This document shows positions 3,805 through 5,812 of a stretch of 31,365 nucleotides of DNA, one piece after another (the stretch's first letter is position 1; every line of letters starts with the position of its first letter). Position numbers and translations under genes: made by a program. The notes under the pieces are model-generated. The model did not search any database. It saw nothing but the letters and a program-made list of their open reading frames with translations, and had not been told where the DNA came from. Source of the DNA: an uncultured archaeon (GTDB lineage Archaea; Iainarchaeota; Iainarchaeia; Iainarchaeales; DATDZZ01); the NCBI GenBank assembly GCA_964373795.1, contig CAYJVY010000003.1:100898-132262 (forward strand). The letters run 5' to 3'.

Positions 3805-4305
3805 ATGTCTAGAAGAATTTCCTCTGCAACTAGAAAACTTCAAAGAAAGCAAAGACAACAAAGACTTGAAAAAGGAAGATTTCATCCAAATAATTTATTT
3901 AGCTCAAATTTTTTAAAGATTTTAAGAAAACTTTCCCCAGATCAAAGACTTGTTGCAAATAATTTAAGAAACTCTAATGAAGTGGAAAGAATTAAGGCTT
4001 TAAGACAATTAATTTCTTGGACTTCCGAAAGAGAAGTGCTTCCGGTAATTAAAGCATTATTTAGAGATCCTTCTCCAAAAGTCAGAGCAGATGTATTATT
4101 CAGATTATTTCATTTAGACAAAACTGGAAGCATTCCATTATTTAAAAAAGCTTTAAGGGATTCCTCTCCAAGTGTAAGATTAAATGCAGTTCACTGCTTG
4201 TCTTGGCTTAGAGATTCAAGGTTTCATGTATTTATTCGAGAAAAATTAGACGACCCAGATAAAAATGTAAGAGAAGCAGTTCGCCATGCATTGACTTACA
4301 CTTAG
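3805..4305 (+). CDS. HEAT (PBS-lyase-type) repeat protein with an Arg/Lys-rich N-terminal tail
   Basis: Three repeats of the D-P/S-S-P-x-V-R type (DPSPKVRADV, DSSPSVRLNAV, DPDKNVREAV). N-terminus is MSRRISSATRKLQRKQRQQRLEKGR. Confidence 0.6.
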   Translation: MSRRISSATRKLQRKQRQQRLEKGRFHPNNLFSSNFLKILRKLSPDQRLVANNLRNSNEVERIKALRQLISWTSEREVLPVIKALFRDPSPKVRADVLFRLFHLDKTGSIPLFKKALRDSSPSVRLNAVHCLSWLRDSRFHVFIREKLDDPDKNVREAVRHALTYT

Positions 4306-4328
4306 TTTCTAAAAATAGTTTCTTTCCT
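4303..4328. repeat. Orphan duplicate of the purA 3' end (left copy of a 26-bp direct repeat)
   Basis: TAGTTTCTAAAAATAGTTTCTTTCCT matches 4551-4576 at 25 of 26 positions. Its reverse complement encodes RKETIFRN-stop, the same residues as the purA C-terminus. Confidence 0.85.
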
Positions 4329-4338
4329 TTAAGCAAAG

Positions 4339-4347
4339 TTTAAATTA
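4339..4347 (+). promoter_or_regulatory. TATA box for the hicB-like gene
   Basis: TTTAAATTA ends about 25 nt upstream of ATG 4372, consistent with a leaderless archaeal transcript. Confidence 0.45.
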
Positions 4348-4371
4348 ACTAACGCCTATAATTTAATTAAT

Positions 4372-4560
4372 ATGAAAAAAAAAGTTTACAATTTTGCTGT
4401 ACTAATTGAACAGGATAAAGAAGGTTGGTTTGTGGCAAAAGTTCCTGATATTCAAGGATGCAATACTCAAGGAAAAACAATTGATGAAGTAATTGAAAGA
4501 ATTAAAGAAGCAATTCAAGTTTGCTTGGAAGCTGAAAAAATTGATTTTCCTAGTTTCTAA
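4372..4560 (+). CDS. hicB: HicB-like (UPF0150) antitoxin-domain protein with no HicA partner nearby
   Basis: 62 aa. [42 protein letters not shown] is the typical HicB N-terminal fold pattern. The last codons run into the purA 3' end. Confidence 0.65.
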
Positions 4561-5812
4561 AAATTGTTTCTTTCCTGTCCGGCCCAAAAGAAATAATTGT
4601 TATAGGTAAATTTAATTCTTTTTCAATAAATTTTACATATTTTTTTGCTTCAACTGGAAGATCATTAAATGAATGAATTTTTTCTGTATTAAATTCAAAT
4701 CCAGGCATTGAAATAAATTCTGGAATGCATTTTTCTTGAAGATCTGCTTCAGCAGGAAAATCCTTCAAGGTTTCTGCATTAACTTTATATGAAACAGCAA
4801 TTTTTAATTCCTTAAAACCTGAAAGAACATCCAATTTAGTTAAAGCAATTTCAGTCAAACCATTCAACCTGTTTGCAGTTCGAAGCAAACACAAGTCAAG
4901 CCATCCAATTCTTCTAGGTCTGCCAGTAGTAGTTCCATACTCCTTGCCGTTTTCTCGAATCTTGCTGCCAATAGAATCTTTTAATTCAGTTGGAAAAGGT
5001 CCAGAGCCAACTCTAGTAGTATAAGCCTTTACTACTCCAATTACTTTCTTCACGTGCTTGAAACCAACTCCGCTTCCAGTAAAAGCTCCTCCAATAGTTG
5101 GATTAGAAGAAGTAACAAAAGGATAGCTTCCAAAATCTAAATCCAAAAAAGTTCCTTGAGCTCCTTCAAATAAAACATTTTTTTCAGCTTCAAGAGCATT
5201 AAATAATTCCATTGAAACATCTTTCTTGAATTTAGAAAAAAGTTTTCCAAGAAAAGAATACTCTTCAACAACTTCGTTTACCGTGAAAGGCATTTTCTGA
5301 GAAAAAACCTTTTCCACAATTTGATTCTTTTGGAAAAAGAGTTTTTCCACTGCATTTCTAAGTTTTTCTTCTGAAATCAGTTCCTCGAAACGAATTCCTT
5401 GCTTGTTTGCTTTATCTGCATAACAAGGGCCAATGCCTCTCTTCGTTGTTCCAATAAGGTTTTGCCCTCTTTCGGTTTCAAATAATTCGTCAAACAATAC
5501 ATGCCATGGCGTTATAATATGCGTTCTTGGATCAATTACTAAATCTACTTTCCAATTAATTTGATCTAATTCTTTTTTCAAAACCCTTGGATCTAGGACA
5601 ACTCCTGCTCCAATTAAAACCTTTTTTCCTTGCACTACTCCTGAAGGCAGTAAATGAAACTTGAATTCTTTTCCTTGAACTACTACTGTGTGGCCTGCAT
5701 TATTGCCTCCTTGAAATCTTACAACTAATTCAGCTTTTTCAGCTAACAAGTCAGTTATCTTTCCTTTTCCTTCATCTCCAAATTGAGCTCCTAAAATAAT
5801 TGTTCCAGGCAT
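4550..5812 (-). CDS. purA: Adenylosuccinate synthetase (long, bacterial-length form, 420 aa)
   Basis: [12 protein letters not shown]-loop, [19 protein letters not shown]. Confidence 0.95.
4551..4576. repeat. Right copy of the 26-bp direct repeat (the genuine purA 3' end)
   Basis: See 4303-4328. This copy is contiguous with the purA reading frame. Confidence 0.85.

Follow-up and report, generated by a model that had tools for sequence, protein, structure and literature searches.

In a 31,365-nt stretch of DNA from an uncultured archaeon of the order Iainarchaeales (called the window below; positions refer to this whole stretch), the 3′ end of the adenylosuccinate synthetase gene purA is present twice, and the first part of hicB, a gene of the toxin–antitoxin (TA) module hicB-hicA, lies between the two copies. 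The window (C3:100898–132262) belongs to contig C3 of a scaffolded metagenome assembly of 1.29 Mb with 30% G+C and 28 contigs; judging by protein names in public sources, the genome falls within the DPANN group 'Candidatus Diapherotrites'. The purA gene is intact and encodes a protein of 420 amino acids on the minus strand (positions 4550–5812; PF00709, E=2.2e-165, matching profile positions 1–416 of 416). A gene for a HEAT-repeat protein of 166 amino acids is directed toward it on the plus strand (3805–4305; PF13646 HEAT_2, E=2e-16). At the junction of the two genes, the 26-mers TAGTTTCTAAAAATAGTTTCTTTCCT (4303–4328) and TAGTTTCTAAAAATTGTTTCTTTCCT (4551–4576) form a direct repeat with 25 of 26 positions identical, enclosing 222 bp of inserted foreign DNA (4329–4550; 28% G+C) that holds, on the plus strand, a putative promoter and the first 60 codons of hicB.

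The two 26-mers are the sole matches to each other within the window at up to three mismatches, with none expected from 100 dinucleotide-preserving shuffles, and the entire genome contains only these two copies at the same tolerance. The right copy comprises the last eight codons of purA and is its functional 3′ end, contiguous with the open reading frame (ORF); the present stop codon TAG takes its TA from the repeat and its third base from the end of the insert. The left copy repeats these eight codons as an orphan and also holds the stop codon of the HEAT gene, whose TAG (4303–4305) forms the first three bases of the repeat. Read on the minus strand, it encodes the same eight residues followed by TAA. 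Directly before them lies an in-frame TAA (complement of 4329–4331), and therefore no gene is attached to this copy. The single difference between the copies is synonymous, with ACT on the left and ACA on the right in a Thr codon of the purA end. If insert and one repeat copy are removed, the HEAT stop TAG and a purA stop TAA on the opposite strand would overlap by 2 nt, so that an insertion without duplication would have destroyed one of the two stops. These observations support the view that the repeat is a locus-specific duplicate of the purA and HEAT gene ends around foreign DNA. A first-pass annotation made from the sequence alone had already given the coordinates and the 25/26 match correctly and had recognized the right copy as the true purA end and the left one as lacking a gene; the refutation that it had named, a 26-mer that proves to be a dispersed repeat, fails with the count of two in the genome.

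A truncated hicB gene between the repeat copies

The leftmost 43 bp of the insert carry a TATA-like box, TTTAAAT (4339–4345, plus strand), 27–33 nt 5′ of the hicB ATG. A purine-rich AAAG directly 5′ of the box resembles a B recognition element (BRE). In aligned cassettes of other genomes the box is conserved as (A)TATGTTTAAAT with its spacing to the ATG kept, and we regard it as a likely promoter element. The hicB ORF of 62 amino acids (4372–4560, plus strand) significantly matches the profile of the HicB N-terminal domain (PF15919, E=7.2e-9, 36.3 bits against a cut-off of 27). Its native sequence ends at the CC of Pro60 (4549–4550); the final T of this codon, the following Ser-Phe and the TAA stop are supplied by the right repeat.

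Searching 5.8 billion proteins, we found 447 relatives of this HicB. Those listed are mostly 74–75 amino acids long, 62–82% identical across the first 56–60 residues, and come from Woesearchaeota, Diapherotrites, Aenigmarchaeota, Nanoarchaeota and Methanosarcinales. In a full-length alignment with 15 homologs (14 of them 74–75 amino acids long), to which it is 65–76% identical, the window protein stops 12 residues short, its last residues being derived from the repeat, and it lacks the C-terminal motif KFVGxQxVEVxV that is conserved in all of them except P0171. The same boundary appears at the DNA level. Insert positions 2–222 are 77–82% identical to hicB cassettes of Woesearchaeota, Nanoarchaeota and other archaea, and this homology ends at the last inserted base (4550), where the relatives continue with hicB and the window continues into the repeat. 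Microhomology at this junction, judged from the homologs, is at most 1 nt and uninformative. Among 80 homologous loci from as many species, hicB is full length in 75 and hicA follows directly 3′ of it in 69. A tblastn search with five HicA proteins detected no hicA remnant in the window (E>0.3), and an Rfam scan of positions 3700–4800 yielded only two sub-threshold small nucleolar RNA matches, which we take as chance.

The insert thus represents the 5′ part of a hicB-hicA module, from the putative promoter to codon 60 of hicB; it is the stub of a two-gene module, not a complete TA system, and is probably non-functional or weakly functional. Compared with known HicAB type II systems (HicB PF15919/UPF0150, HicA PF07927), it shares a clear HicB N-terminal domain and belongs with a compact clade of 74-aa archaeal proteins paired with hicA, but it is devoid of the last beta-strand (KFVGxQxVEV) and of the toxin gene. 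The first-pass annotation had described the cargo accurately as a TTTAAAT box and a HicB-like ORF of 62 amino acids running into the right repeat. Its term single-gene cassette has to be abandoned, as the junction truncates hicB exactly at codon 60 of about 74 and the partner gene hicA is absent. The PurA proteins of the same archaeal groups are at most 60% identical to that of the window, compared with the 77–82% DNA identity of the cassette, and the cassette is therefore clearly horizontally mobile.

No conspecific DNA turned up in the collections; PurA was a singleton among the 5.8 billion proteins, and the 26-mer has no match in public metagenome contigs. The best purA match, 73% identical, lies on one 2.3-kb contig (L030, GCA_030650135.1), whereas all others reach at most 60%. 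On L030, purA converges directly with panB (76% identical) across a spacer of 14 bp that contains no hicB and no HEAT gene. This gene order shows that the purA end did not ancestrally carry hicB. The L030 purA end encodes RKETIFR with the Thr codon ACT, matching the orphan left copy. Family- and order-level relatives do not share synteny around purA. The HEAT gene (window 3786–4305 versus L030 1245–1262) is either a lineage-specific gain at the junction or was lost in L030; it has no flanking repeat, and a third, degenerate copy of the purA end beside panB, which would mark it as an earlier insertion, was not found.

Repeat-flanked toxin–antitoxin modules in this genome and in other archaea

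All direct repeats of ≥20 bp with a spacing of 60–4000 bp were collected across the genome, and paralogous genes, internal protein repeats and the 48–55-bp overlaps that flank 100-N gaps were excluded. The last group (C12:27573–27782, C15:4965–5174 and C17:13548–13743) represents contig-end overlaps and hints at the k-mer size of the assembler. The long repeat pairs left after these exclusions bracket TA modules. They are a 51-bp exact pair around hicB-hicA between two converging genes (contig C6), a 31-bp exact pair around AbrB-PIN (C18), a 30-bp pair with one mismatch around antitoxin-PIN (C5), a 30-bp pair with one mismatch around PIN-AbrB, in which the 3′ end of a fructose-1,6-bisphosphatase gene is duplicated (C9), a 22-bp pair with one mismatch around PIN-AbrB (C14), a 32-bp exact pair around PIN, a ribbon-helix-helix (RHH) gene and a hydrolase gene (C2), and, both on C3, a 24-bp exact pair around HepT-MNT (window 1–880) and the 26-bp pair with one mismatch around the hicB stub at purA. 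Each of the eight pairs is unique in the genome and they are mutually unrelated, with lengths of 22, at least 24, 26, 30, 30, 31, 32 and 51 bp. The single difference between the C9 copies (59755–59784 and 60785–60814) is synonymous, as at purA (TTT versus TTC, Phe). Such a genome search had been proposed in the first-pass annotation, and it returned seven more TA cassettes of the same architecture.

The association was also seen when starting from the modules. Of 29 TA loci defined independently by Pfam searches, seven (~24%) have flanking repeats at a score threshold of ≥18, compared with 2.6% of 3000 random intervals; the eighth pair, around the PIN module on C2, is additional to these seven. 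We then examined 69 homologous hicBA loci from different archaeal species with enough flanking sequence, with 65 intervals from the same loci as controls. Flanking repeats at the same threshold occur at 13 of the 69 loci (~19%) and in two of the 65 control intervals.

The repeats around hicBA in other species range from 16 to 191 bp and are all different. Ends of converging genes are duplicated, as at purA, in the loci L092, L093, L047 and L073. In L047, from another Diapherotrites/Iainarchaeum genome, the repeat is the 3′ end of lonB, and the same arrangement is found in four metagenomes; among 23 family members, 21 retain the lonB flank but not the other one, and a clean empty site was not found. 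The inserted unit is usually minimal, with about 40–65 bp 5′ of hicB and 3–26 bp 3′ of hicA. Across 16 junction pairs we detected neither a shared terminal motif nor inverted repeats at the cassette ends. A start of the form TTAAG...AAAGTTT, common to the window insert and L073, resembles promoter conservation rather than an element end. Two loci have three repeat copies, L084 (at 2373, 3016 and 4566) and L063 (1228, 1956 and 2996), as would be expected if successive cassettes enter one target and each duplicates it again.

In Methanosarcina, the sequence flanking hicBA belongs to a family of ~85-bp repeats that is dispersed or arrayed in many genomes, and we rejected these loci (e.g., L104) as target duplications for this reason. 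The ~85-bp sequence forms local arrays at several loci per genome, with a copy every 650–1100 bp (up to 3.6 kb) and hicBA between copies, for example in L104 (2291–2400, 2986–3064), L101 (1–29, 638–690, 1382–1447, 2454–2518) and L125 (842, 1501, 2366); further loci are G058:C22, G095:C3, G085:C21 and G055:C1. These arrays look like rows of small cassettes with a conserved repeat between neighbors, which may be integron-like or belong to another repeat-mediated system, and they are distinct from unique target duplications.

The second repeat-flanked module of the window lies at its left end. HepT (37–444) and the MNT nucleotidyltransferase gene (416–844) form a complete TA pair on the plus strand (PF01934, E=1e-20; PF01909, E=3e-9). 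The right 24-bp repeat (857–880) is located 20 nt 5′ of the start of coaBC (901), and the left one (1–24) follows directly after a 100-N scaffold gap; the repeat may therefore exceed 24 bp, and its left context is not visible. The first-pass annotation had attributed the same architecture to this module as to the hicB insert, which agrees with the exact flanking repeat, but the comparison is weakened by the gap at the left copy. Within the repeat-flanked segment (C3:100898–101777, both repeat copies included), the HepT-MNT insert has only 12–22 nt before its start codon, which leaves too little room for an own promoter. AATAAATTAAAG is part of the duplicated 24-mer, which lies just 5′ of both HepT and coaBC, and the duplication may therefore have given each of the two genes one promoter copy. 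Within 6 kb (C3:99727–105473, from 1.2 kb before the window to window position 4576) lie three TA units, namely AbrB-PIN, HepT-MNT and the hicB stub, among genes of coenzyme A and purine biosynthesis.

Enzymes, element ends and known kinds of insertion

No recombinase gene is among the ORFs listed for window positions 1–8000. Matches to PF00589 across the genome identify two tyrosine recombinases, on contigs C1 and C8, the latter of 421 amino acids, and the genome has no Cas1. The statement of the first-pass annotation that no integrase or transposase is nearby therefore stands: the insert holds the putative promoter and the hicB stub only, and the recombinase genes are on other contigs. The two termini of the insert, TTAAGCAAAG and GATTTTCC, do not form an inverted repeat; we found no palindromic element in the insert, which ends inside the hicB ORF.

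Several element classes are disfavored on these grounds. The TTAAGC start of the insert fits the TTRRRY core of an integron cassette, but the preceding base is T instead of G, there is no attC, and the locus is isolated between housekeeping genes. A DNA transposon or miniature inverted-repeat transposable element (MITE) does not agree with the lack of inverted termini and with duplication lengths that vary between 22 and 51 bp. Membership in a family of site-specific integrative elements is improbable, with no integrase nearby and eight unrelated repeat pairs.

Each of these systems nevertheless shares features with the locus. Integrase-mediated integration at the 3′ ends of genes (attL/attR) likewise leaves a direct repeat of the target gene end and an intact gene; here there is no integrase and no core common to related elements, and the cargo is 222 bp. 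The cassettes resemble integron TA cassettes in being minimal units with their own promoter, but there is no attC, array, attI or IntI, and the flanking repeat is target sequence and not a site of the element. Widely staggered cuts yield duplications of 14 to ~50 bp in transposons with long, variable target duplications and in Cas1-type integrases (casposons, CRISPR repeat duplication); IS1630 of Mycoplasma generates target duplications of 19–26 bp (cited in PMC2853133). Unlike these systems, our cassettes have no terminal inverted repeats, transposase or Cas1, and the repeats of this single genome vary in length between 22 and 51 bp. A single anecdotal bacterial example comes from Microcystis aeruginosa PCC 7806, where a ParE/ParD-like module lies between identical 152-bp direct repeats (Klemencic et al. 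2021, PMC7935541). It, too, is a chromosomal TA pair fenced by direct repeats just 3′ of a host gene, but those repeats contain inverted repeats and were not read as a target duplication.

The closest parallel is insertion with long target duplication, as described for restriction-modification gene complexes (Nobusato et al. 2000, Gene 259:99; Furuta, Abe and Kobayashi 2010, PMC2853133). Furuta et al. reported long, variable and unique direct repeats without mobility genes, often spanning start or stop codons, and inserted partial genes; the mechanism is unknown (PMC2853133). Their screen considered duplications >30 bp, and no archaeal case survived it (PMC2853133). The hicB insert likewise has a unique, locus-specific repeat and no transposase, integrase or inverted repeats; its neighbors are kept intact by a repeat spanning stop codons, the unit is of an addictive type, and a partial gene is involved. 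It differs in its cargo, a type II TA module, in its host, a member of the DPANN archaea, and in its repeat of 26 bp, and the restriction-modification cases rest on a genome with the empty site. A 2013 review on the mobility of TA and restriction-modification systems credits the long-duplication route to restriction-modification only (PMC3874152), and our full-text literature searches found no systematic account of TA cassettes with long target duplications. TA cargo and an archaeal host are new for this known but poorly understood kind of insertion.

Proposed history of the locus and alternative explanations

We propose, with a probability of roughly 60%, that a foreign hicB-hicA minicassette inserted at the purA end with duplication of its target through host replication or repair, and later decayed to the present hicB stub. 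The HEAT gene and purA would originally have been convergent, with stop codons overlapping by 2 nt. A minicassette of promoter, hicB and hicA, from a family moving among DPANN and other archaea, would have inserted at this junction, copying at least 26 bp of the target to both sides; as a result, the HEAT stop was kept in the left copy and the last eight purA codons in the right one. Joining would most likely have been done by host replication or repair and not by an enzyme of the cassette, either by template switching onto the incoming DNA and then back to a point upstream, or by fill-in of widely staggered breaks. Both routes would lead to duplications of variable length without conserved element ends. 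Selection would keep those insertions whose duplicate preserves both neighbors, and the toxin would retain the cassette by punishing its loss through recombination between the repeats. A later deletion would then have taken the last 14 codons of hicB and all of hicA, the harmless direction of decay for a TA pair.

Several points weigh against this history. A same-species empty site has not been seen, given that purA is a singleton and the 26-mer is absent from metagenome contigs. For this reason the target duplication proposed in the first-pass annotation is still a deduction, although the locus-specific duplicate of the two gene ends around foreign DNA is supported. The comparison with relatives that it had recommended led to L030, which has a single purA end without hicB, but L030 is not a clean empty site, with purA only 73% identical and the HEAT gene also absent. 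The repeat of 26 bp is below the 30-bp threshold that Furuta et al. used for long duplications. Its left boundary falls exactly on both stop codons, which is a coincidence under any model with random endpoints. The Methanosarcina repeats around hicBA differ in origin, so that not every flanking repeat is a target duplication. Finally, the other repeat-flanked cassettes all carry complete gene pairs, and the truncation at purA could date from the insertion itself.

This last point leads to the alternative that a hicB fragment, already truncated, was inserted by the same recombinase-free duplication as neutral captured DNA, and that no toxin gene was ever present at the locus. The homology to other cassettes ends exactly at the junction without any further deletion scar, and the insertion of partial restriction-modification genes with long duplications, reported by Furuta et al., provides a precedent. 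With a fragment there would also be no need for a second event that by chance ended at the boundary of the repeat; however, if the original repeat was longer, the later deletion would itself have set the present boundary and the coincidence would disappear. Moreover, a fragment without toxin has nothing to oppose its loss through the repeats, and complete gene pairs are carried by the seven other cassettes here and by all repeat-flanked homologous loci elsewhere. We therefore consider insertion of a fragment unlikely, though worth keeping in mind.

Integrative elements such as viruses or plasmids frequently insert at the 3′ ends of genes and bring along a copy of the end by which the gene is restored, and the 26-mer might in principle be the attachment (att) core of such an element at the purA end, since decayed to a hicB fragment. 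The 421-aa tyrosine recombinase on C8 would be a candidate enzyme, but no integrase lies in or near the insert. The eight cassettes of this genome have different repeats of 22–51 bp and contain the TA unit only, one of them with an added hydrolase gene, and homologous cassettes elsewhere have other, locus-specific repeats. Eight independent decays to bare TA units are implausible, and this origin is improbable.

We give about as little credit to a Campbell-type entry, in which a circle of the cassette and one purA end from a related strain recombined with the resident purA end. Excision from repeat to repeat would yield exactly such a circle, and the single synonymous difference between the copies is what donor and recipient alleles might show; yet 26 bp are very short for homologous recombination, and this route accounts for spread within a species and not for the first insertion at the site.

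A duplication or junctions produced by mis-joined strain variants during assembly are the least credible explanation: the genome is a scaffolded metagenome assembly in which the left HepT-MNT repeat abuts a 100-N gap and exact 48–55-bp repeats around such gaps on C12, C15 and C17 clearly stem from scaffolding. The two 26-mers, however, are located within a 132-kb contig at a large distance from any gap; they are shorter than these overlaps and differ at one base, both neighboring genes read correctly, and assemblies that other laboratories made with other assemblers show the same architecture.

How chromosomal TA modules move without a visible mobile element is an old open question; reviews call them "highly mobile" but offer no route (PMC2654758). 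Unique duplications of neighboring gene ends provide a datable and countable footprint of entry, which makes TA mobility testable. Compact genomes would favor long duplications, as an insertion without duplication between convergent genes with overlapping stops damages one of them. The purA locus is a degraded example of this recurrent footprint, in which the stub illustrates the expected path of decay, with the toxin lost first and the remainder still inside the footprint of entry, and such flanking duplications may show how TA modules spread without an enzyme of their own. We tentatively suggest, as a possibility somewhat short of probable, that bare TA minicassettes (a promoter, two genes and a few further bases) may form a mobile class of their own in DPANN and other archaea, entering without recombinase and duplicating 16–190 bp. 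If so, about a fifth to a quarter of the loci would still show the recent footprint of entry, loss by way of the repeats would be held in check by the toxin, and stubs such as the one at purA would mark the end of the cycle; the life cycle with long target duplication would then extend from restriction-modification systems to all addictive modules and to Archaea.

One further repeat in this genome appears to be of a different kind. A 72-bp repeat with two mismatches (C10:34515–34586 and 35707–35778) duplicates an inner segment of the coding region for a 501-aa protein with many Asp-repeat (DxDxDG-like) motifs, and the copy lies past a gene for a protein of 234 amino acids without Pfam match. 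By its sequence features, this is a possible polymorphic-toxin/immunity locus with a displaced toxin fragment rather than a TA insertion.

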